Part shown: in pieces, positions 2,385 through 24,094 of the stretch | Layout of the letters: every line of letters begins with the position of its first letter | Numbering within the stretch: the stretch's first letter is position 1 | Notes under the pieces: model-generated | What the model was told of the DNA's origin: nothing | Databases searched by the model: none | The model's input: only the letters and a program-made list of their open reading frames with translations | Assembly (NCBI GenBank): GCA_964473865.1 | Contig: CAYYQN010000005.1 | Location: 80,035-144,034 of the forward strand | Length of the DNA stretch: 64,000 nucleotides | Source of the DNA: an uncultured bacterium | GTDB lineage: Bacteria; Eisenbacteria; RBG-16-71-46; CAIMUX01 | Direction: 5' to 3' | Program-made: the position numbers and the translations under genes

Positions 2385-3023
2385 ATGCACCGAGGCCTCG
2401 ATCTCCGCTCGAGCTTGCCGGCAGTGTGTCTGCTGGCCCTGGCCGTGCTCCCCGTCTACGCGGATCCGTGCTTCCACCTGGACTTCGATGACGACAACAA
2501 TCCCTGGACGCTGCGTACGCAGATGCCTCCGGGCGTCACGGAGGGCGTAGTCCGGTTCGTCTTCGAGGCGCCGGCCGTGCTTCCGTCCGGCCAGGAGTTC
2601 TACTGGGATGTGATGGAAGGGTGCTGCAACGACATGTTCCAGTTCGGCCACGTGGGAGCGGGATTGGATCCCATGTCGCTGACCTTTGATCCGGCTTTTG
2701 TGGCTTACTATGAACCCCTTCTGCCGACCTGCACCCTTTGCTGTCCGTGGGTGATCTACGGGACCTTCGCCGGGGACATGCAGGCCGTGGCGGGGCAGCG
2801 GTACTTCATCGGCGAAGCGGCGGCCAGCGCTCGTTGCGAGGACTTTCCGCCGCCGTGCTACCCGCCGCAGGAGTTCCAGGTCCGATTCAGCCCGGCCGCC
2901 CTCTGCGGGGAGACGACCTCGGATCTCATGGTCTTCCTGTGCCCCACCAGCGGCCTGCCGGAGGAGCCTGCGGAGGCCGCCCGGAGCTGGGGAAGGATCA
3001 AGGCGAGGTATCGCTCGGAGTAA
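2385..3023 (+). CDS. Secreted Cys-rich hypothetical protein with C-terminal SWGRIKARYR motif
   Basis: ATG 2385 with CAGGAGG RBS; signal peptide (LPAVCLLALAVLPVYA-D); multiple Cys; ends SGLPEEPAEAARSWGRIKARYRSE. Confidence 0.8.
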   Translation: MHRGLDLRSSLPAVCLLALAVLPVYADPCFHLDFDDDNNPWTLRTQMPPGVTEGVVRFVFEAPAVLPSGQEFYWDVMEGCCNDMFQFGHVGAGLDPMSLTFDPAFVAYYEPLLPTCTLCCPWVIYGTFAGDMQAVAGQRYFIGEAAASARCEDFPPPCYPPQEFQVRFSPAALCGETTSDLMVFLCPTSGLPEEPAEAARSWGRIKARYRSE

Positions 3024-13412: not shown

Positions 13413-16400
13413 TCATCGCAACAGCAGAATCTTCTCCGATCTGCGCTGGCGTGTGGACTCCAGGCGGATGAGATACAGACCGGCGCCGACGCGGCGCCCC
13501 CGATCATCTCGCCCGTCCCAATTCTCCACGTACCAACCTGCCTCCCGACGATCCCGGTTCAGGACGGTGCGCACCAGGCGCCCATCGGGGGCGTAGATCG
13601 CCAGGCGGACCACATCCCGGTCCGGAACTCCGTACCGGATGAGGGTGCCGCGGAGTGCGGGGTTGGGAATGCACGGCGAGAGCCGGAGGGATTGCGGCGG
13701 TTCCGCTCCCGGCGTGGTCACGGTGATCGGGCCAAAGGACTCCCGCTCTCCATTCCGCTCCACCCCGACCACGCGATACTCGTACTCCCGGCCGGGCAGA
13801 ACGTTCGCGTCCACGAACCGATACTCGCCGTTCCAGGAGGGGACGAGCAGTTCGGAGGTGATCGCGAATTCCTCTTCCGTCACCGGCAGTACCTGCCGCC
13901 GGTAGACCTCAAAACCGGCGTAGTCGAGATCGGGCGGCGTCCGCCAGGAGAGGATCACTCCTTGGTCCCCTGCCGTGGCCATCAATCCGGACACCTGAAT
14001 CGGCGTCACCGTTCGCACCGCGAAGGTGATCGGGATCTCGATGATCGGCCGGGCCAGATCGTTCGTTTCCAGGATCAGCTTCGCGTGGTGATCTCCCGCC
14101 GGCAGCGTCTCGGAGTTGAACTCCAGGGTCAGCTCTCCTTCGGTCCCGGCCGCCACCGACAGATGAGCCGGATCAGAGTCGATCCACACGGCATCGAAGC
14201 CGTCCGGCATCGAGTCAGACTCCCCGGGGCCCGGACCGGCCGTCGCGTGTACCAACAGGTCGATGCGCCAGGGTTGTCCGAGCTCCGCGAGATCCAAGCC
14301 CAGCGTGATCCGGTCGTCGTGAAGGTCGAACGCCAGTAGTCCCGATGCCGGGTTGAGGTCGCCGTCCAGCAGCACGACGACGGCGCCGAAGTACTGCATC
14401 GCCTGGGCCCCCGCCAGAACCAGGAAGTCCACTCCGGGGGACTGCCGGTCGGTGTTCATGGCGACTACCAGCGTCGAGGCCGCGTACAGCGAGAGCATCG
14501 ACTCATGGGCGGAAACGGAGAGGTAGAGCGTATCCGCAACCAGCCGCTTCGCCAGGCTGGCCAGGTCCGGATCGGCCTCGGGCGGGTCGTTCGGATCTGT
14601 GGCCAAGGTGTCCCAGTCCGACGGCCACCTCCTCGAACCGCCCGGCACGACCGCCGGCTGCGCCTTCGGGCGCGGCGAGGCGAGACCCCGGAGCAGCTCC
14701 GCCAAGCGCGGTCCGGAATCCGACGCGGAACCGGCCGGCACCGGCAACGATCGGAGCTTCCGATCGCCGGCCGCCCGATTCGCCCCCGGCGCCCCGTCCG
14801 AGTCCAGGCGGATCGCGATCCGCATGTCGTCGACGGTCTGCGCGGTGTCGGCAAGGAAGGCGTTCGCCTCCAGAACTCCCGTCCCCGTGTTCCGGATGGC
14901 CAGCGTGGTGTCCACCACCCCGGAGGAGTCGATACTGACCGTGATCGCAGTGAAGTCGGCCGCGTAGGTGGCCAGATACGCGGTGGCGGCAACCGGACCG
15001 GCGAGCGGGCTCTCCGCGCTCCCATAGAGCGCGCTGACGTAGTACCGGTAGCTCTCGCCGATGACCGCGGTTGTGTCGCGGTATTGCCGGGCAGTCAGCG
15101 GCTCCGCGTTCAAGAGCGTGAGAGCGTCATCCTGGCCCGCGAGGCGATCGGCCCCGGCGGACCGTTCCGCGCGGCCGGCGCTCCGCCCACCGCCATCGAT
15201 GAAGCTGTCTCCGAATCCCGCGGAGCGATAGACGTTGTAGCCGGTGACGGGAGTCGCTCCGACCGCGGACAGACCCGCCGGCTGAGCCCAGCGCAGCGCA
15301 ACCGTGGTTCCGATCCCGTCGCGGGCCTGCAGGCGCTGGGGCGCCCCGGCGACCTGCCGCTCGACAACCGACAGGTCATCCAGATACCAGCCCAGGCCGG
15401 TGACGCCCTGGTCGGAACTGAAGACGAGGCGGATGCGGACATCCGCTTGCCCGAGGTACGGGAACAGGTCGAACTGCGCGGTCTCCCATCCGCCCGTTTC
15501 GCCGGAATACCCCGGGCTGCCCTGGGCGGCCAGGACGTGCGCCGGGTAGTCGCCCGCTGGACGCGCCAGTGTCCAGGTGACACCGCCGTCGATGGAGACC
15601 TCGACGAACCCGCCGTCATAGGCCTCCTCACAAGAGAGGTAGTGGCGAAACACCAGGGCCGCGGAGGCGAACTCCGTGAGATCAACCGGCTCCAGCGAGA
15701 GGGTCGACCGGGTCATGTGTTGATAGGGACCGTCCAGGCTCGTGGCCCAGAGGTTCTGACCGGAAACCGCCTCCACCACCGTGGAGTGCCCCCACTCCCA
15801 GTCGTTGTCGCCCTGCACCCCGCCATCGTCGGCCTCGAAGTCCCGCTCAAAGCCCCGGACGATCCGGAAGGAGTGCCAGCCGCTCGCCGGATCCGTGGCG
15901 GCGTTCGGAACCGCCGCTCCGTCTTCAGCCTCAATCTGGTACCGCACACTGTCGCCCAGGGCGAGCCCCAAGGTGCTGAGCTCTGCCAGGTAGTCGTGGC
16001 CGCCGAGCGCGGCCATGGAGCCGACGATGGGCGGATTCTCGTTGTGCTGCTGGGTGAGAGTCACCGCGCGCAGCGGCTGATCGAGGTTGTCCCGAACCGC
16101 CGCGCGGGCCCGGATCGCATCGATGTCGATCGGCTGATCGGGAAGCGGATCGTGCGCGATGACCGGGGCGGTCACGTCCGCACCGACCACGAAGACGCAC
16201 GGATCCGCCTCTCCGGCCTCCGGCCAGGTCACGGTGGTCCCGCTGGTGTCGGCGGCGGTGAAGTAGTACCTGACGATGGTGCCCGCGGGCTGGGGCTGCA
16301 GGACGGTGGTGTACTCCCGCGAAGATAGCCCGGTCGGCGCCATTGTCGAGTCGATGAAGGTCACATCCTCTCCCCGCGTCAGGGTCGCGTGGACCCGAAC

Positions 16401-18272
16401 CTGTTCCGGATCCAGGGCGAAGACACTGAGAAAGGACGCGGTCAAGGGGAGGGTCCGCAGCGTATCCTCGGTGTCGCTGAACGGAGTGTGGGAGACGTGA
16501 ATGCCGTAGTCTCCGATCCCGTGAGCGCGAAAGATGCCGCAGATCGCGTCCAGGTTGGGTGTCCCGTCGTACACGTCGTCATTGTCGTCGTCGTACGTCA
16601 GGAGAGCGAAGAAGTAGTCGTCGAAGTTGTCGGCGAACCCGAGACGGGCGAAGTGAAAGAGCGAATCGGCGCGGGGCGCGCCGAGCGTCTCTCGCAGGTC
16701 CCACAGCGCCGACCCGATGATGAGACCGTCGTGGTGGGACTCGCCGATCCAGTCCTCTGGGTAGACGAAGTCATCGTCGATGCGGCGCAGGCTGGTTCCG
16801 GGGCCGTAGAATCCGCGGCCCAGCACCGGCTGTCCGCTGATGGTCGCGGCATAGTAGTCGGAGAATCCCTCGGCCATGGCCCCGGAGAGGGAGAAGGGGC
16901 GCGTCAGGAAATCCGTGATTCCGTGGCCGTACTCGTGATAGGCCACATCCGCAATCCGGGCGACGTTGACGCAGCGCCCTCCCGCTTCGTAGAAGCTGAT
17001 GCCGACGCCGTCCCAGAAGGCATTGCACCTCCCCGGGACATTCACATAGATCGGCATCGGGTAGTCGAGGAGGTCAAACCCGGGATCGATCGTCTGGATG
17101 TGGTCATGCGCGACCATGACGTTGAGATAGGCATCCCGCTCGGCAACCTGCGCCTCGCTCTCGCCGAAGTAGAAGTCCACCTGCGCGGATTCGCCGTCCG
17201 GCACCGGCTGGCTGATGGATGCGACCTGGCCGGTTCGCACGTCGTACACCACCCCAAACGGCCCGCTCAAGCTCGCCGCCGCCGTGCGGCCGGTCCCGGC
17301 GCCGATCTCCAGCGAGAAGGTACCGTCGGCGGCGGTCACGGTGTCCACCGAGTCGGCCTCGGGAGCGGAGCACAGCACGTTCAGGTGCGGAAACGGCCGG
17401 TCCTCGAACTCCTCATCGGCGGTGATCGGCTCCACGGAGCCCTGGACCTGCCCGTGGACCTCCCCGAACTGGATTCTGTTGAACCGCCAGACGAGGGTCC
17501 CGTCCGCAGCGTCCACGAAGCTGACCCAGACGCCCGGAACCTCGACGGTGCGGAACTCCAGCCGCCAGGTCGCGCGCAACTCATAGTGCTCGGACCTTCG
17601 GATCGGCAGGTAGGTCAGGGCCGGATCGCCCAGCGGCGCCGGTGCGCCGGGCAGCCCCTCTCGCGCCGCCTCCACGGCTTCCGCCGGCGTGGTCCGGAAG
17701 GCGTAGCCCGCAGGCAGCCCGAGAAACGTGTGGTTGCTTACCAGCGTAACGCGTCCGTGACGGCTGAGGCGTGCGGTCAACCGGCTGTCCCAGACCGGGA
17801 CGCCCTCATGGATCTGCTGGAAGTGCACCCAGAATCCCCCACGATCGCCGATCGTTCGCGCCTCGACGAGATCCTCAACCGGTATCCACGCCGCCATCTC
17901 GGCCTGCAGGAACGCGCGCACCGCATCCGCAGCGTTCACCGAGTCCACCGCGCCGAAGCCGGGCACCGCCTGCGGCGGGCCCTGCAGTCGCTCCGGAACC
18001 CGCGAGGCCACATCCCAGCGAGCGACCCACCCGGGATGACGAAGGATGAACTCGTTGAACGCCGGCGATCGAGAGAGCGCCGCCTGCAGGCCCGGGTCGC
18101 CCGGACGACGTCCCCAGGCCGCCTCCTCGCCGCGCCGATCCACCTCGTACCTGGCGGTCTCGGGAGACGGCAGGACCGCCTTCCCGGCAGTGGGCACCAC
18201 GGCAACGGCGGCGAGCAGCGCCACGCGAATCAGATGCCGGCAGGTCCCGACGACAGAGTGTGACAACCGCAT
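13413..18272 (-). CDS. Large secreted M4/M36-type zinc metallopeptidase with propeptide, accessory beta-sandwich domains and FlgD-Ig C-terminal domain
   Basis: Signal peptide; FTP/PepSY-like propeptide (VHFQQIHEGVPV, FVDAADG); CNAFWDG; HEYGH zinc motif; GAMAEGFSDY; EEAYDGGFVEVS...W domain; FN3-like LRW...GYNVYR...YYVSA; C-terminal PNP...WDGRDD.G...GLY. Confidence 0.88.
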   Translation of the reverse strand: MRLSHSVVGTCRHLIRVALLAAVAVVPTAGKAVLPSPETARYEVDRRGEEAAWGRRPGDPGLQAALSRSPAFNEFILRHPGWVARWDVASRVPERLQGPPQAVPGFGAVDSVNAADAVRAFLQAEMAAWIPVEDLVEARTIGDRGGFWVHFQQIHEGVPVWDSRLTARLSRHGRVTLVSNHTFLGLPAGYAFRTTPAEAVEAAREGLPGAPAPLGDPALTYLPIRRSEHYELRATWRLEFRTVEVPGVWVSFVDAADGTLVWRFNRIQFGEVHGQVQGSVEPITADEEFEDRPFPHLNVLCSAPEADSVDTVTAADGTFSLEIGAGTGRTAAASLSGPFGVVYDVRTGQVASISQPVPDGESAQVDFYFGESEAQVAERDAYLNVMVAHDHIQTIDPGFDLLDYPMPIYVNVPGRCNAFWDGVGISFYEAGGRCVNVARIADVAYHEYGHGITDFLTRPFSLSGAMAEGFSDYYAATISGQPVLGRGFYGPGTSLRRIDDDFVYPEDWIGESHHDGLIIGSALWDLRETLGAPRADSLFHFARLGFADNFDDYFFALLTYDDDNDDVYDGTPNLDAICGIFRAHGIGDYGIHVSHTPFSDTEDTLRTLPLTASFLSVFALDPEQVRVHATLTRGEDVTFIDSTMAPTGLSSREYTTVLQPQPAGTIVRYYFTAADTSGTTVTWPEAGEADPCVFVVGADVTAPVIAHDPLPDQPIDIDAIRARAAVRDNLDQPLRAVTLTQQHNENPPIVGSMAALGGHDYLAELSTLGLALGDSVRYQIEAEDGAAVPNAATDPASGWHSFRIVRGFERDFEADDGGVQGDNDWEWGHSTVVEAVSGQNLWATSLDGPYQHMTRSTLSLEPVDLTEFASAALVFRHYLSCEEAYDGGFVEVSIDGGVTWTLARPAGDYPAHVLAAQGSPGYSGETGGWETAQFDLFPYLGQADVRIRLVFSSDQGVTGLGWYLDDLSVVERQVAGAPQRLQARDGIGTTVALRWAQPAGLSAVGATPVTGYNVYRSAGFGDSFIDGGGRSAGRAERSAGADRLAGQDDALTLLNAEPLTARQYRDTTAVIGESYRYYVSALYGSAESPLAGPVAATAYLATYAADFTAITVSIDSSGVVDTTLAIRNTGTGVLEANAFLADTAQTVDDMRIAIRLDSDGAPGANRAAGDRKLRSLPVPAGSASDSGPRLAELLRGLASPRPKAQPAVVPGGSRRWPSDWDTLATDPNDPPEADPDLASLAKRLVADTLYLSVSAHESMLSLYAASTLVVAMNTDRQSPGVDFLVLAGAQAMQYFGAVVVLLDGDLNPASGLLAFDLHDDRITLGLDLAELGQPWRIDLLVHATAGPGPGESDSMPDGFDAVWIDSDPAHLSVAAGTEGELTLEFNSETLPAGDHHAKLILETNDLARPIIEIPITFAVRTVTPIQVSGLMATAGDQGVILSWRTPPDLDYAGFEVYRRQVLPVTEEEFAITSELLVPSWNGEYRFVDANVLPGREYEYRVVGVERNGERESFGPITVTTPGAEPPQSLRLSPCIPNPALRGTLIRYGVPDRDVVRLAIYAPDGRLVRTVLNRDRREAGWYVENWDGRDDRGRRVGAGLYLIRLESTRQRRSEKILLLR

Positions 18273-18353: not shown

Positions 18354-18926
18354 CTACTTCTCCATGACGAGAACGACTCGCGCCTCCCGCGATTTCGCGC
18401 GGGCGATCAACCGGACATGATCCACGCGCCGGCCGTCCGGAAAGTCCAGCAGCGCGTAGAAGCCGGGATCCCGGGTCTTCTCGGAGAAGTCGACGACCTG
18501 GGTGTCGCCGTTCTCGAACACGACCTCGGCGAAATCGAGCTGAACCTTCCCCGACATCACCTCGAAGTAGAGCCGGCGTCCCCGCTGGTTGGAGTCGAAG
18601 AGCGTCTCCGACCAGCCGTCGTCCTTGAACAGCGTTTCGGCATCCTGCCAGATGAGCGCGCTCGGGGCGGGGCGGGTTACCACCAGCGGCGCCCAGACCA
18701 CGACCGGCAGGAACCGCGCGGGCGCGACCCGAACCACAACTGCCGGACGCCGGAACACCACCGGGTGCATCGGGCGCCGAATCGGATGCCCCGGGCGAAC
18801 CACCACCGCGGCGCGCCGGGGAGGTCCGCGCCGCCCGCCCCGCGCCGGTCCGGCTTCGACGGTGGGGGGCGCAGGCAACGCGAGCGTGAACAGGGCCAGG
18901 ATCCCGAGTACGAACCTGCGACGCAT
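18354..18926 (-). CDS. Exported hypothetical protein: Arg/Pro/Val-rich linker plus small beta-sandwich (DUF2541-like)
   Basis: AGGAGG RBS; signal peptide; C-terminal VQLDFAEVVFENG...RVDHVRL; family assignment tentative. Confidence 0.6.
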   Translation of the reverse strand: MRRRFVLGILALFTLALPAPPTVEAGPARGGRRGPPRRAAVVVRPGHPIRRPMHPVVFRRPAVVVRVAPARFLPVVVWAPLVVTRPAPSALIWQDAETLFKDDGWSETLFDSNQRGRRLYFEVMSGKVQLDFAEVVFENGDTQVVDFSEKTRDPGFYALLDFPDGRRVDHVRLIARAKSREARVVLVMEK

Positions 18927-19260: not shown

Positions 19261-20202
19261 CTAGCGATACGTCCGCTTGACTCCGCCCCAACTGGTCTGG
19301 CGCGCGCTTCCGTCGGCCTCCGGCACTCCCACCGTTGGGGGCGTGACGGTGAGCTCAACCGAGGCACAATCGTGAGATCCATCCGTGATCGCGACGATCA
19401 ACCCGTCGTGCACTCCGATCGCCAGGTCCGCGGCGTCGATCGAGACGTCGATCCGCCTTACGTCGGGTTCGACATCTGTCTCGGAGAGGCTCATCCATGG
19501 TTGATCGTCCACGAAGGTGGTGAAGCAAGACATGTGCAGCCAGGCCTCCAGGGAGACCGAGGTCTGGCCTCCTTGGGGCACGGTCACCTGGAGCACCGGC
19601 GGGTGGTAGCTCGTGTAGCACTGCGGGAACCAGTTCCAGCAGTCATAGGTGGAGTAGCAGGGTCCGCCGGCCGCCGCCGGCAGGACCATGCACGGCACGC
19701 CATCCGCGGCGACGAAGGTCCAGGAATTGAAGCTCCCCGCGGAAGCGGCCGCCAGCTCCAGTCGGCCGATGCGTGTCGGATCGATCCCGATCACAAGCGG
19801 CTGCGGAAGTTGCAGTCCGACTCGCACTCCGTCCGCCAGCGGTTCCACATCCGGCGAACCATCCACGCAACTCACGAACTGAAGAAGAGACCACGCGCCG
19901 TCCCAATGCAGCTCCAGATCCAGGTCGCTGGCCGGATAGTCCGGCTCGAGGAGGGCATAGAGGTAGACGTCCACGGTCAGATTCCCGAGTTCGCCGCAGT
20001 ACTGAACGATCTGGCCGCACTCGGTAACCGGGTCGACCAGACAGTCCAAGGGGCTCAGCGGCTGCATGTGGAACGCAACCGCCAGTGGCCCCGGAAGCGG
20101 ATTGGCGGACACCGAGGTGAACGGGGTCGCAAGGAGGAAGGCCGAACCCAGGCAGGCCAGGCTCATCACTGTAACCGCAGACTGCCGCAAACGTTGTCTC
20201 AT
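19261..20202 (-). CDS. Secreted Cys-rich protein with BACON-like domain and C-terminal TSWGGVKRTYR motif
   Basis: ATG 20202 with GGAGG RBS; signal peptide; PWMSLS...VSIDAADLAIGVHDGLI is BACON/Ig-like; ends VGVPEADGSARQTSWGGVKRTYR. Confidence 0.8.
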   Translation of the reverse strand: MRQRLRQSAVTVMSLACLGSAFLLATPFTSVSANPLPGPLAVAFHMQPLSPLDCLVDPVTECGQIVQYCGELGNLTVDVYLYALLEPDYPASDLDLELHWDGAWSLLQFVSCVDGSPDVEPLADGVRVGLQLPQPLVIGIDPTRIGRLELAAASAGSFNSWTFVAADGVPCMVLPAAAGGPCYSTYDCWNWFPQCYTSYHPPVLQVTVPQGGQTSVSLEAWLHMSCFTTFVDDQPWMSLSETDVEPDVRRIDVSIDAADLAIGVHDGLIVAITDGSHDCASVELTVTPPTVGVPEADGSARQTSWGGVKRTYR

Positions 20203-20287
20203 CGGACACCTCCGGCGGGATTTGCTGGTTCGAACAATCAGGCGCCGGTGTGGGGGTCGAGAGGTCCTTATCCCGCTCAGCACCGCA

Positions 20288-20316
20288 ATCATACCCCAGG
20301 CCAGCGCCGGAGTCAA
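20288..20316 (-). promoter_or_regulatory. Sigma-70 promoter of the 19261-20202 gene
   Basis: Minus strand TTGACT-17 nt-TATGAT, near consensus, 85 nt upstream of the ATG. Confidence 0.7.
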
Positions 20317-20494: not shown

Positions 20495-21205
20495 ATGGAA
20501 CTGGAAGGAGCCCGAGCCCTCGTCACTGGGGGCGGCCGTGGCATCGGCGCCACCATCGCCTTGGCGCTCGCCGGCAGCGGCTGCCGCGTCGCGCTGGCCG
20601 CTCGCACCGAGTCGGAACTCGACTCGATCGCCGCCGGTGTCACCACCGCCGGAGTGCGCGCCCTGGTCTTGCCCACGGACCTGACGCGCCCCGAGGAAGT
20701 CCGCGGTCTGGCGCAGAAGGTGGAGTCCGCATTCGGCGGAATCGACATCCTCGTAAACAACGCCGGCGGCGGGGTTCTCCGCCCGGCCCTCGAGATGACC
20801 GAGGAGGACTTCGAGCATACCCTGGAGTTGAACCTGACCTCGGTCTTTCGCCTGACCAGGGCCTTTCTTCCCGGAATGCTCCAGCGCAAGCAGGGGCACA
20901 TCGTGATGATCGCGTCCACTGCCGCCCGCCGCGGGTTTGCCGGCGGCACTGCGTATTGCGCGGCCAAGTTCGGCCTCAACGGATTCGCGCAATCGCTCTT
21001 CCACGAGACGAGGAAGAGCGGGGTCCGGGTGACCACGGTGTTCCCGTCCTCGGTGAACACGGAGCTGGCCCGGAATCTGGGTCCCCCGCCCGACCCCGAC
21101 CGGCTGATTCAGCCGGCGGATGTCGCCCTGGCCGTCCTGGCGGCCCTGCGCACCGACGATCGGGCAACCGTCAAGGAGATCGAGATCTGGGGTACGAATC
21201 CATGA
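20495..21205 (+). CDS. Short-chain dehydrogenase/reductase (classical SDR)
   Basis: ATG 20495 with GAGGAGG RBS; TGGGRGIG, NNAG, YCAAK. Confidence 0.93.
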   Translation: MELEGARALVTGGGRGIGATIALALAGSGCRVALAARTESELDSIAAGVTTAGVRALVLPTDLTRPEEVRGLAQKVESAFGGIDILVNNAGGGVLRPALEMTEEDFEHTLELNLTSVFRLTRAFLPGMLQRKQGHIVMIASTAARRGFAGGTAYCAAKFGLNGFAQSLFHETRKSGVRVTTVFPSSVNTELARNLGPPPDPDRLIQPADVALAVLAALRTDDRATVKEIEIWGTNP

Positions 21206-21987: not shown

Positions 21988-22240
21988 CCGGATCCGCGCG
22001 GCACGATTCCGTAACGGCCGCAAAACGCAGGTACCAAGGATTCCCGCCGCGACCCGGCATGACTCTGGCTACCGTCTCGGGTGGTGACGAAGACCCGACC
22101 CCCAGCGGGACCGTGAGGAGGGAGATCCGGGGGCGGCGGAGCCCTGAGGTCTCGGAACTCGCACCCGGGTAGACGAGCGCGTTCGGCGATGCGGGACTAC
22201 CTCCGGCCCATGCGCCATGCCCGGGAAGGCGGAACGCCGG

Positions 22241-24094
22241 ATGGATTTCATCGAGGATCGACTTCAGATCCGCCACCAGCCTCCCCGATGGACAAGCGCC
22301 GTCCGCGTGTTGACCCTTGTCACGGCGCTTGCAGCCGCCTGCGCGGCCCGGGCCGAGAGACTTCCGGTGGTCCTCGACGGCAGCTTCGACGATTGGAGCG
22401 GCCTGGCCCCAGTGTGGACTGATCCGTCTGGAGACCAGGGGCAGAGCGGCATCGACCTGGGCCGGCTCTGGCTCGCCGACGATGCCGTGAACTTCTACCT
22501 GCGCTTCGAAGTGGGCCCGGAGCTGCTCCTGAACGGCGGGAACAGCCTCAGCCTCGCCTTCGATACCGACGCCGACGCCACCACCGGACAGCCGCGGAAC
22601 GGAATCGGAGCCGACCTCGTCTGGCGCCCGGGCCGGAAGTCGGGAACCTTCTGCTTCGGATCCATGCAGACCGAGGTGAAGTGGGACGACTGCGGCTTCG
22701 TCGGTCTGCCCACCCTCAGTGACCGCGCGTTCGAGGTCGCCTTTCGCCGCGACGCGCGACCCGACGGAATCCACCCTCTCTTCCCCAACGTGGCGGGCAC
22801 AACCATCCGGGTTCTGCTCTACGACGCCGCCTTCGCCGGAGACCTTCTGCCGAACGCGGGACAGATCCTCTCCTACGCGCTCGATCAGGGTTCCGCGATC
22901 ACCGAGGAGCCGTTGCCGTTGGCGCGGCAGCATCCCACCGACCTGCGCATCATCACCTGGAATGTCCTTTCCGACGGACCTTGGGACGGCACGCTCCAGC
23001 CGAGGTTTCAGCGACAGATCCAGGCTACAACCCCGGATCTCCTCAGTTTCCAGGAGATCTATCACCACTCGCCGGAGGCCACGCGGCAGCTCATCGCCTC
23101 CTGGCTGCCCGGAACCTGGTATGCCGCGGGGAACAATGACTGCATCACTGTCAGCCGCTACCCGGTGCTCGGCTCGTGGCCGCTGGACGGCAATCTTGCC
23201 GTCTATCTCGATACCGAGGAGGCGCTCGGCAAGCGGACCCTGTTGATCAACGCGCACTTGCCTTGCTGCGCGAACGATGCCGGTCGCCAGGATGAGGTCG
23301 ACCGGATCCTCTCCTTCATTCGCGACGCTCGGACCCCGGGCGGGTCGCTCGATCTGCCGGTCGGGACGGTCATGCTCCTCATGGGCGACACGAATTTCGT
23401 CGGGAGCTCGGATCAACGCCGGTCTCTTCTGACGGGCGACATTCGTGACAACACCACGTTCGGACCCGACTTCGCCCCCGATTGGAACGGCGGGCCGCTG
23501 ACCGACCTGGTCTCCCGCCACACCGAGGCCCGGGTCAGCTACACCTGGCTCGAAGCCGGGAGCGCATTCTGGCCGGGGCGGATCGACTACTTTGTGTACA
23601 ACAGCTCCGCCATGTCGCCGGCGAGTCACTATGTCCTCGACCCGTCGGAAATGTCGGCCGACAGCCTGGCCGCTCACGGGCTGCAGGCCGGCGACGCCGG
23701 GGCCAGTGACCACCGGCTGCTCTGCGTCGACCTCCGGGCGGCATCACCGGGCGAAGACTGCCCAGGTGGAGCCGGTCCGACCTGTTCGGCCGTTGAAGGA
23801 GACCTCCGTTGCGTGATCGCTCCGAATCCGTCGGTGGCAGGCTCGGCGCGACTCGAGCTGACTCTGCAACAGCCGGCGACGCTGCGTCTCTCCGTGTTCA
23901 ACGCGGCCGGCCGGTGTGTGAGCGAGCCGTTCGGAGGCAAGCAGGTCTACCGGCCGGGCCGGTGGACATTCCGCTGGGACGGCCGGGGCCCCGACGCTCG
24001 GATCCTGTCTCCAGGAATCTACTTCGTGCGTCTGGACGGACACGGCGCGGCGGGAACCATCCGCCGGACCCTGCGCTGGGTGATCGTGCAGTGA
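22241..24094 (+). CDS. Secreted endonuclease/exonuclease/phosphatase (EEP) family protein with N-terminal DOMON-like and C-terminal FlgD-Ig domains
   Basis: Signal peptide; LDGSFDDW...DPSGD; catalytic motifs ITWNV, FQEI, NAHL, MGDTN, RIDY, ASDH; C-terminal PNP...WDGR...GIYFVRL; alternative start 22217. Confidence 0.85.
   Translation: MDFIEDRLQIRHQPPRWTSAVRVLTLVTALAAACAARAERLPVVLDGSFDDWSGLAPVWTDPSGDQGQSGIDLGRLWLADDAVNFYLRFEVGPELLLNGGNSLSLAFDTDADATTGQPRNGIGADLVWRPGRKSGTFCFGSMQTEVKWDDCGFVGLPTLSDRAFEVAFRRDARPDGIHPLFPNVAGTTIRVLLYDAAFAGDLLPNAGQILSYALDQGSAITEEPLPLARQHPTDLRIITWNVLSDGPWDGTLQPRFQRQIQATTPDLLSFQEIYHHSPEATRQLIASWLPGTWYAAGNNDCITVSRYPVLGSWPLDGNLAVYLDTEEALGKRTLLINAHLPCCANDAGRQDEVDRILSFIRDARTPGGSLDLPVGTVMLLMGDTNFVGSSDQRRSLLTGDIRDNTTFGPDFAPDWNGGPLTDLVSRHTEARVSYTWLEAGSAFWPGRIDYFVYNSSAMSPASHYVLDPSEMSADSLAAHGLQAGDAGASDHRLLCVDLRAASPGEDCPGGAGPTCSAVEGDLRCVIAPNPSVAGSARLELTLQQPATLRLSVFNAAGRCVSEPFGGKQVYRPGRWTFRWDGRGPDARILSPGIYFVRLDGHGAAGTIRRTLRWVIVQ

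Follow-up and report, generated by a model that had tools for sequence, protein, structure and literature searches.

What is the function of the last ten residues of an exported protein from an uncultured bacterium of the phylum Eisenbacteria, and by which component of the cell envelope, if any, could they be read? The protein is encoded in a stretch of 64,000 nucleotides (assembly GCA_964473865.1, contig CAYYQN010000005.1, positions 80,035 to 144,034), which is called the window below; the target gene occupies window positions 19261–20202 on the minus strand, codes for 313 amino acids and ends in ...TPPTVGVPEADGSARQTSWGGVKRTYR-stop. Its tail, SWGGVKRTYR (residues 304–313; positions 19264–19293, minus strand; stop at 19261–19263), was regarded in an earlier note on the window as a motif added in modular fashion to different cargo proteins, as expected of a sorting signal. 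The analysis of the whole genome and of related genomes, as described here, makes it highly probable that this tail, or tag, serves to localise or anchor the proteins which bear it. The fuller reading which we prefer, and to which a little less than even credence is given, is that the tail is a portable C-terminal tag for the sorting or anchoring of Sec-exported proteins, and that it is processed by a PorU-like peptidase, termed PorUL. The hosts of the tag are Eisenbacteria and allied candidate phyla which possess a type IX secretion system (T9SS).

The tag and its carriers

The six-frame translation of the whole genome (5.35 Mb) contained 67 words of the form WGxxKxx[YFW]; 59 of these were located at most 6 residues from a stop codon, against a background of 8.3% of eight-residue windows lying that near a stop (binomial p ~5e-55), and in 45 of the 67 exactly one residue followed the aromatic one. 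The consensus was P-P-[VT]-P-[VT]-E-x-x-[ST]-W-G-x-[IVL]-K-x-x-[YF]-R-stop, i.e., a core [ST]-W-G-x-[IVL]-K-x-x-[YF]-R-stop, mostly behind a Pro-rich linker P-x-P-[VT]-E, with a conserved part spanning 10–18 amino acids. Arg was the last residue in 50 of the 57 carrier proteins recovered. The invariant Gly is encoded by GGG (23 cases), GGC (17), GGA (13) and GGT (4), the Ser by AGC, TCC or AGT, and the Arg by 5 codons; codon identity within the tag was 0.58 at position 3, compared with 0.70 at positions 1 and 2. Synonymous codons thus vary freely, and therefore selection acts on the protein and the tag is not a DNA repeat: it is strictly C-terminal and selected at the protein level. No model of Pfam or NCBIfam covered the tail in the target and nine other carriers which were checked, and a search of the literature yielded no description of it.

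Nearly all carriers possess an N-terminal signal peptide, two of them with a lipobox. The cargo comprises right-handed beta-helix, VWA, tandem PKD and cohesin-like proteins, a large "AGPNxGG" family, a PPC-like family and proteins with Cys-rich repeats; matches in Pfam were to beta-helix, VWA or PKD domains, or there were none. Clustering by BLAST produced 15 groups, with 13 singletons, among them the target and a second carrier in the window (copy 1). The latter is an unrelated exported protein of 202 amino acids (2415–3023, plus strand; tag at 2985–3014) ending in SWGRIKARYRSE, for which neither Pfam nor NCBIfam gave a match. The largest group contained 42 of the 57 carriers by single linkage, joined mainly by Cys-rich repeats that are common to several cargo types. 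The modularity which the earlier note had proposed is borne out by the 15 groups and the differing Pfam domains; a single shared domain containing the motif, named there as the finding that would speak against it, was looked for, and the carriers share none.

The Cys-rich repeat is about 35 residues long (GACCxxDGSCxxxxxxxCxxxGGxxxGxGxxCxPNPC), was not matched in Pfam or NCBIfam, and forms tandem arrays of up to ~12 copies, which separate the cargo domains from the terminal signal, be it the tag or the T9SS domain (for example at C25:41792-43843, C6:135687-137381 and C4:100720-103269, the prefix denoting the contig). Many tails were found behind a C-x4-5-C motif.

The tag is not only modular over unrelated cargo, it is also interchangeable, among close paralogues, with T9SS-type domains and with PEP-CTERM signals. 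The tagged protein at C2:121396 and the protein at C33:37097, which has a FlgD_ig (T9SS-type) end, are 68% identical; the tagged protein at C2:122609 has two differently ended paralogues (C2:107355 and C2:109765; 67% identity), and that at C4:100720 corresponds to C77:1859 with 62% identity over 667 residues. The tagged protein at C6:55839 adjoins a paralogue at C6:54578 (65% identity) with the PEP-CTERM end ...PPVPEPTSLALLFLGAGVLAIGGGIRKYRK. Beside about 57 tags, the genome encodes, by rough tallies, about 26 PEP-CTERM signals (consisting of PVPEP, a transmembrane helix and RRR) and some 150–160 C-terminal domains of the T9SS type, the latter counted by regular expression and BLAST family. 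Since the exchange takes place with two established sorting signals, it is the strongest evidence within this genome for the tail as a sorting or anchoring signal, and it supports the proposal of the note in this respect, too.

The tail was also compared with known types of C-terminal signals. The T9SS type A domain (TIGR04183 / PF18962 / FlgD_ig) was not matched at the C-terminus of the target or of nine other carriers, and a hydrophobic stretch, as in PEP-CTERM proteins, is absent behind the P-x-P-V-E linker of the target. The beta-signal of outer-membrane beta-barrels does not fit proteins with soluble domains and a terminal Arg.

The conserved positions of the tag are S0, W1, G2, [IVL]4, K5, [YF]8 and R9, with positions 3, 6 and 7 being variable. 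The periodicity of conservation peaked at 90–100 degrees (power of 6.3 at 100 degrees, compared with 1.0 at 180 degrees), and the same periodicity was seen in the alignment of the target family, which had been chosen independently of the motif. This pattern fits a helix which is read via one face, and the structure prediction by AlphaFold2 (AF2) for the target, presented below, agrees with it; the strand moment, which is taken up with the interpretation, points the other way. In a second AF2 model, of a tag protein from the gene module described below, the tail had a predicted local distance difference test score (pLDDT) of 34, the alignment used not reaching the tail.

Decayed or extended tags occur at C61:1483-2910, C31:47790-49181, C66:1454-2407 and C44:34671-35741, and one paralogue lacks the tail; the forms include SWGRIKHLMRGRG with ~15 further residues, SWGRLKYLLGG with ~17 further residues, and SWGQLKGERVKE. 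They look like tags in the course of being lost. The gene at C66:1454-2407, with the degenerate tail SWGQLKGERVKE, is a diverged paralogue of the target in the same genome.

The target protein

The target would appear to be a cell-envelope protein consisting of a cohesin-like and an Ig-like domain and the tag. Its AF2 model, calculated with the family alignment as input, was confident (pLDDT 89.9; predicted template-modelling score 0.79), with the two sandwiches at residues 40–173 and 197–287 and the linker, at low confidence, at 288–304. Residues ~38–175 (19678–20091, minus strand) are modelled as an N-terminal cohesin-like beta-sandwich with pLDDT >93, for which Foldseek matched the cohesins 2xdh (TMt 0.63) and 2jh2 (0.55) and the cohesin plus FN3 module 2w1n. 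At the level of the predicted fold, with the nine-stranded jelly-roll as the criterion, this domain can be placed with the cohesins; at the level of sequence no cohesin match was obtained with Pfam, neither for the target nor for the module tag proteins. Comparison by hhalign between the N-domain and the tag proteins of the PorUL module gave a probability of 89% and E 2e-6, to which score the signal peptide contributes.

Residues ~197–287 (19342–19614, minus strand) form an Ig/FN3-like beta-sandwich in the model (pLDDT 94–98), with tandem Ig/FN3 proteins as Foldseek matches. This domain had been called "Ig/BACON-like"; the first part of the name agrees with the model and with Foldseek, the second was not matched in either Pfam or Foldseek. 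BACON families (PF13004 / PF19190) were not found by Pfam at E <= 0.1, where the sole match was TPPII_Ig-like-1 (residues 221–272, E 0.027, below threshold), nor among the best 50 Foldseek matches in the PDB, which were Ig, FN3, integrin and cohesin modules. We therefore regard this part of the protein as a generic sandwich of the Ig/FN3 type; a BACON domain could not be demonstrated.

The Ig/FN3-like domain leads into a linker, PPTVGVPEADGSARQT (residues 288–303; 19294–19341, minus strand), which is predicted to be flexible (pLDDT ~63, no secondary structure) and is the counterpart of the P-x-P-[VT]-E-x-x stretch ahead of most tags. The fuller end of the protein reads ...SVELTVTPPTVGVPEADGSARQTSWGGVKRTYR; the order ...VELTV-TPPTVGVPE-ADGSARQT and then SWGGVKRTYR is as the note had described it, with the tail behind an Ig-like domain and the linker TPPTVGVPE. 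A short helix in the last residues, which the note had expected, was predicted by AF2 for residues 305–312 (pLDDT ~80), behind the low-confidence linker.

About 110 representatives of the target family, 290–340 amino acids long, were obtained in an exhaustive HMMER search; nearly all of them end with the tag and align to the last residue. W305, G306 and K309 were conserved to at least 90%, despite overall identities of 24–57%.

The start of the gene is the ATG at 20202, because an upstream GGAGG, the signal peptide and the starts of homologues all agree on it. The Shine-Dalgarno sequence GGAGG was read from the sequence at 20209–20213 (minus strand), 6 nucleotides 5' of the ATG. The signal peptide comprises residues 1–33, MRQRLRQSAVTVMSLACLGSAFLLATPFTSVSA|NPLP, with ...FTSVSA before the cut (20104–20202, minus strand), and the motif A-N-P-x-P behind its hydrophobic core is conserved to at least 90% in the target family. 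An open reading frame of 599 amino acids beginning with GTG was rejected as too long; its 5' part overlaps a short-chain dehydrogenase gene on the plus strand (20495–21205). A sigma-70-like promoter had been proposed for the target gene, and its place and sequence were as given, with TTGACT at 20316–20311, a spacer of 17 nucleotides and TATGAT at 20293–20288 (minus strand); its standing is that of a consensus match, with 10 of 12 positions agreeing, and it was the sole such site in 1.7 kb, where 0.2 would be expected.

Occurrence in other genomes

With a hidden Markov model (HMM) of 22 columns, the tag was detected in all 206 of 206 genomes of the phylum to which the window belongs, with up to at least 42 matches per genome; few tags (1–7 matches) were present in one family with small genomes. 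Scanning of GTDB species genomes with a DNA pattern yielded at least 118 loci, essentially all of them true terminal tags. The labels among the loci listed were Eisenbacteria, Zixiibacteriota, Krumholzibacteriia, Latescibacterota, Gemmatimonadota, Fibrobacteraceae, Kapaibacterium, Melioribacter and Ignavibacteriaceae, a few of these labels being doubtful. A metagenome-assembled genome (MAG) labelled Gemmatimonadota contained 54–66 tags, and its GTDB phylum consists of 12 species, all with 10–75 tags; MAGs labelled Fibrobacteraceae, Krumholzibacteriia and Latescibacterota had 19, 14 and 7 tags, respectively.

A large phylum of the Bacteroidota type, of which 81 genomes were sampled evenly, presented a different picture: the tag was absent from 73 genomes and was found exactly once in the other 8. 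Since these are genomes of a T9SS phylum, the presence of a T9SS alone does not predict the tag. The single tag was always situated in a FN3-like protein of about 135 amino acids ending in ...RTWGSIKAMFR. This exported, single-copy family, with the end ...VSGVKRTWGSIKAMFR, was noted at L030, L071, L076, L105, L106, L112 and other loci (Bacteroidota or Ignavibacteria type) and has no conserved neighbour genes.

PorUL and its gene neighbourhood

The genome possesses a true PorU (C51:176-4432), which scored 520 bits with the model NF033707 (cut-off 420); of 14 genomes with tags from other lineages, 13 likewise had a canonical PorU above the cut-off. Every tag-rich genome contained, in addition, a second PorU-like gene, PorUL, which codes for 1456 amino acids in this genome (C2:140308-144678). 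Its domains are a C25 peptidase (PF01364, E 1e-50 to 1e-52), a weakly matching C25 propeptide and a FlgD_ig C-terminal domain of its own. In the phylogenetic tree, PorUL formed a clade (support 89/89) separate from that of PorU (96/99). His983 and Cys1022 (numbering of PorUL), the catalytic residues, were invariant in 11 of 11 PorUL and 8 of 8 PorU sequences; from the domain and the spacing of ~35–40 residues between His and Cys, PorUL can be classified as a putative peptidase of family C25 (clan CD).

On the PorU model NF033707, PorUL reached 168–205 bits, i.e., less than the cut-off. Nor did it match the "putative T9SS sortase PorU2" of NCBIfam (NF052324), with scores of 50–99 bits, compared with a cut-off of 450; the name PorU2 is avoided here because it denotes this other family. 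Conversely, a PorUL HMM gave 1370–1560 bits with PorUL and 230–390 bits with PorU in genomes containing both. Of 34 tag-poor genomes, 33 were searched (29 of the Bacteroidota type, three of the Ignavibacteria type and one Zixibacteria MAG); the best match in these was just 102–437 bits, and the PorUL clade is therefore absent from them. The association of tag and PorUL is suggestive and not proof, since few independent lineages are involved.

Most of the Bacteroidota-type genomes G230–G251 have a second PorU-like open reading frame beside PorU, with ~1670–1720 amino acids and 220–260 bits to the PorUL HMM over positions ~220–812; judging from these properties it is probably the PorU2 of NCBIfam.

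When the DNA around PorUL, and not that around the tags, was used as the seed, all genomes examined outside the Eisenbacteria (8 of 8) proved to contain an array, on one strand, of a dockerin-like gene (X), 1–4 cohesin-like tag proteins and PorUL. The genomes in question were MAGs labelled Gemmatimonadota (L147), Krumholzibacteriia (L149), Fibrobacteraceae (L151) and Latescibacterota (L164), and L148, L150, L162 and L163/L166. The order was often a small membrane protein, then X (190–256 amino acids), the tag proteins (185–253 amino acids) and PorUL, and often a SpoIID-like gene; in one of the eight genomes the tags of the module read SFGxVKxLFR. Ten Eisenbacteria genomes from eight families, this one included, had the same genes, with 3–18 kb between the tag cluster and PorUL. 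In the present genome X is located at C2:120591-121196, the tag proteins at C2:121396-122340 and C2:122609-123373, and PorUL 17 kb downstream. The protein at C2:122609-123373 is predicted to have a cohesin fold, 48 of its 50 top Foldseek matches being cohesins (TMt up to 0.68). The C-terminus of X matched a GC-type dockerin weakly (E 0.003, under the cut-off).

The small membrane protein (70–150 amino acids, ...LAPILLVVGYCVLIPLGIL...), which had no family match, precedes X directly in several phyla (L025:1792-2241, L148:12687-12899, L151:15225-15497, L166:13932-14177). A gene with a SpoIID domain follows PorUL in several phyla (L147:2694-4046, L162:5506-6888, L164:6637-7920), and a gene that reads as MurQ-like does so in two genomes; these neighbours may point to a connection of the module with peptidoglycan.

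Other candidates for a reader did not emerge from the neighbourhoods. Around all carriers in this genome nothing specific for a reader was found, only recurring other T9SS cargo, components of ATP-binding cassette (ABC) transporters and sigma factors; TonB-receptor-like barrels near carriers (three, with 6 in the genome) were considered and dismissed for too low significance. In the few-tag Eisenbacteria family f18, two of three conserved tag loci were without a candidate: one contains a lamin-tail-domain protein behind an ABC transporter, the other a Reeler-like protein behind WecB. A conserved, operon-like group of an ABC ATPase, a BPD_transp_2 permease and a tagged lamin-tail-domain protein was noted at L001, L006, L007, L009 and L011, likewise from few-tag Eisenbacteria.

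Interpretation

In the preferred reading, cargo proteins would leave the cytoplasm via Sec, and recognition of the tag would then take place on the outer side of the envelope. The reader would be PorUL, which could reach the cell surface through its own T9SS C-terminal domain, and which might cleave at or before the tag and join the cargo to a surface acceptor, by analogy with the action of PorU on C-terminal domains. That PorUL is the processing enzyme is proposed tentatively, from gene context and co-occurrence. An even wider picture, which we offer as speculation, would be that the SWGxIKxxYR tail and PorUL represent a second type IX-style mode of surface attachment, with a ten-residue peptide tag in place of the C-terminal domain of 80 residues, a dedicated transpeptidase paralogous to PorU which would cleave the tag and join cargo to a surface acceptor, and core substrates of cohesin fold which recruit dockerin partners; the result would be a cellulosome-like scaffold in diderm candidate phyla of the Fibrobacteres-Chlorobi-Bacteroidetes (FCB) group, with the target protein as one unit.

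Several observations weigh against the role ascribed to PorUL. Gene context and co-occurrence are both partly inherited and represent few events at the level of phyla. In a fragmented MAG with 5 tags neither PorU nor PorUL was found, and the tagged FN3-like family of ~135 amino acids exists in about 10% of the Bacteroidota-type genomes, which lack PorUL; therefore, either PorUL is not the universal reader, or that tail is read differently. PorUL might also act on the cohesin-like proteins independently of the tag. Most carriers are encoded far from PorUL, as is the target itself (contig C5, with PorUL on C2), and tagged proteins would have to pass the outer membrane without a T9SS C-terminal domain.

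The tail could thus be a sorting signal and yet be read by another component of the envelope, for instance a barrel of the PorV/PorQ type, the T9SS translocon, a reader or protease with a PDZ domain which binds C-termini, or a scaffold on which the tail docks non-covalently. This alternative is unlikely, in our estimation, but it would account for the carriers unlinked to PorUL and for the single-tag genomes without it; canonical PorU and a T9SS were present in every tag-bearing lineage tested but one, and the requirement for a free C-terminus, with one residue behind Y/F in 45 of the 67 words, is typical of C-terminus-binding readers. Yet no further gene family recurs beside carriers, be it in this genome, in the few-tag Eisenbacteria or around the small FN3-like family, and PorUL is the sole non-cargo gene kept beside tag genes across phyla. 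Rather improbable is the idea that no enzyme is needed at all and the tail is a self-sufficient interfacial anchor, a short amphipathic helix lying on a membrane leaflet, lipopolysaccharide or peptidoglycan. Its composition, with Trp, Ile and Tyr flanked by Lys and Arg, is the mixture of aromatic and basic residues typical of membrane interfaces; the predicted helix at residues 305–312 and the location of conserved residues on one helical face are in line with it, as is a helical hydrophobic moment (100 degrees) of 0.43, compared with 0.37 +/- 0.02 in shuffled sequences. The moment for a strand (180 degrees) was larger, however, at 0.62, which would rather suit a strand-like tail. Ten residues are very short for an anchor, and amphipathicity alone would require neither the invariant Gly and Lys nor such strict spacing, both within the tag and towards the C-terminus; moreover, a self-anchoring tail would leave unexplained the linkage with PorUL across phyla and the exchanges with T9SS domains and PEP-CTERM.

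Hardly conceivable, finally, is that the tail is the final strand or helix, or another structural part, of a single domain common to the carriers, or a translated DNA repeat or terminator. Such a view might invoke the single-linkage BLAST group of 42 carriers and the frequent position of tails behind C-x4-5-C; the group, however, owes its linkage to Cys-rich repeats on otherwise differing cargo, the thirteen singletons stand outside it, the tail lies behind a disordered linker in both AF2 models, and paralogues exchange it for other signals. The DNA-repeat version is ruled out by the free synonymous variation in codon usage. A likeness to Lpp was considered as well, on account of the invariant Lys and the end ...YR (...KYRK in Lpp, which is cross-linked to peptidoglycan by L,D-transpeptidase), but remained without support.

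Comparison with known systems

Bacterial surfaces are organised by known pairs of signal and enzyme: LPXTG and sortase, PEP-CTERM and exosortase, the T9SS domain and PorU. Like the tag, the T9SS type A domain is located at the extreme C-terminus of Sec-exported proteins of FCB phyla and is modular over cargo; domain and tag are exchanged between close paralogues, and PorUL is a paralogue of PorU with the same catalytic dyad. On the other hand, the T9SS domain is a beta-sandwich of 70–100 residues, compared with the 10–18 residues of the tag, which its models do not match; one large T9SS-bearing phylum is almost without the tag, and PorUL remains below the PorU cut-off. PEP-CTERM resembles the tag as a short C-terminal signal behind a Pro/Glu motif (PVPEP, compared with P-V-P-V-E), and in one adjoining pair of paralogues it takes the place of the tag; the tag differs in lacking both a transmembrane helix and a terminal cluster of Arg.

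The LPXTG system, including the sortase-anchored cohesin scaffoldin ScaE of Ruminococcus flavefaciens, likewise combines a short C-terminal tag with a cysteine transpeptidase, which would be PorUL as the candidate here, and cohesin-fold proteins encoded beside a dockerin-type partner are a further feature in common with ScaE. The fold of PorUL (clan CD, C25) is different from that of sortase, however, the hosts of the tag are diderm, and the tag has no hydrophobic stop-transfer segment. In Escherichia coli, PBP5 and PBP6 are attached by a C-terminal amphipathic anchor without an enzyme; these, too, are exported proteins with a short C-terminal helix predicted to be amphipathic, but the tag has an invariant sequence, is present in many genes and several phyla, and is linked genomically to a peptidase. 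Type V pili (FimA/Mfa1 with a C25 gingipain) share with the present system small secreted beta-sandwich proteins which have a conserved C-terminal tail and are encoded together with a C25 peptidase or dependent on it; tag carriers, by contrast, are as a rule not lipoproteins, and among their cargo are enzymes and adhesins that have no relation to pilins.

The tag is contained in no family database, although it is present on dozens of proteins per genome in several uncultured phyla. Its recognition would improve the annotation of thousands of "hypothetical" exoproteins and would help to predict which proteins are exposed or secreted. With an invariant Cys in the candidate enzyme PorUL and a conserved core operon, the question of the tag reader is directly testable; if a sortable signal of ten residues is indeed at hand, it would also lend itself, as an attractive handle of minimal size, to the display of proteins on cell surfaces.

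Surroundings of the target gene

The target gene lies in a neighbourhood of secreted proteins, with no sorting machinery among the genes listed here. Directly downstream, on the same (minus) strand, is the gene for an exported protein of 190 amino acids (18354–18926), whose N-terminal half is rich in Arg and Pro and which belongs to no Pfam family. It is followed by a gene for an exported protein of 1619 amino acids (13413–18272, minus strand) with a fungalysin/thermolysin propeptide motif, an InhA-like MAM domain, FN3 and FlgD_ig; from these domains the product is a candidate for a large metalloprotease among the T9SS cargo. Upstream and divergent from the target, on the plus strand, is the short-chain dehydrogenase gene mentioned above, and then a methyltransferase gene. 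At 22217–24094 (plus strand) a protein of the Exo_endo_phos family with a FlgD_ig C-terminal domain is encoded, which, judging from its domains, is probably a secreted nuclease or phosphatase.

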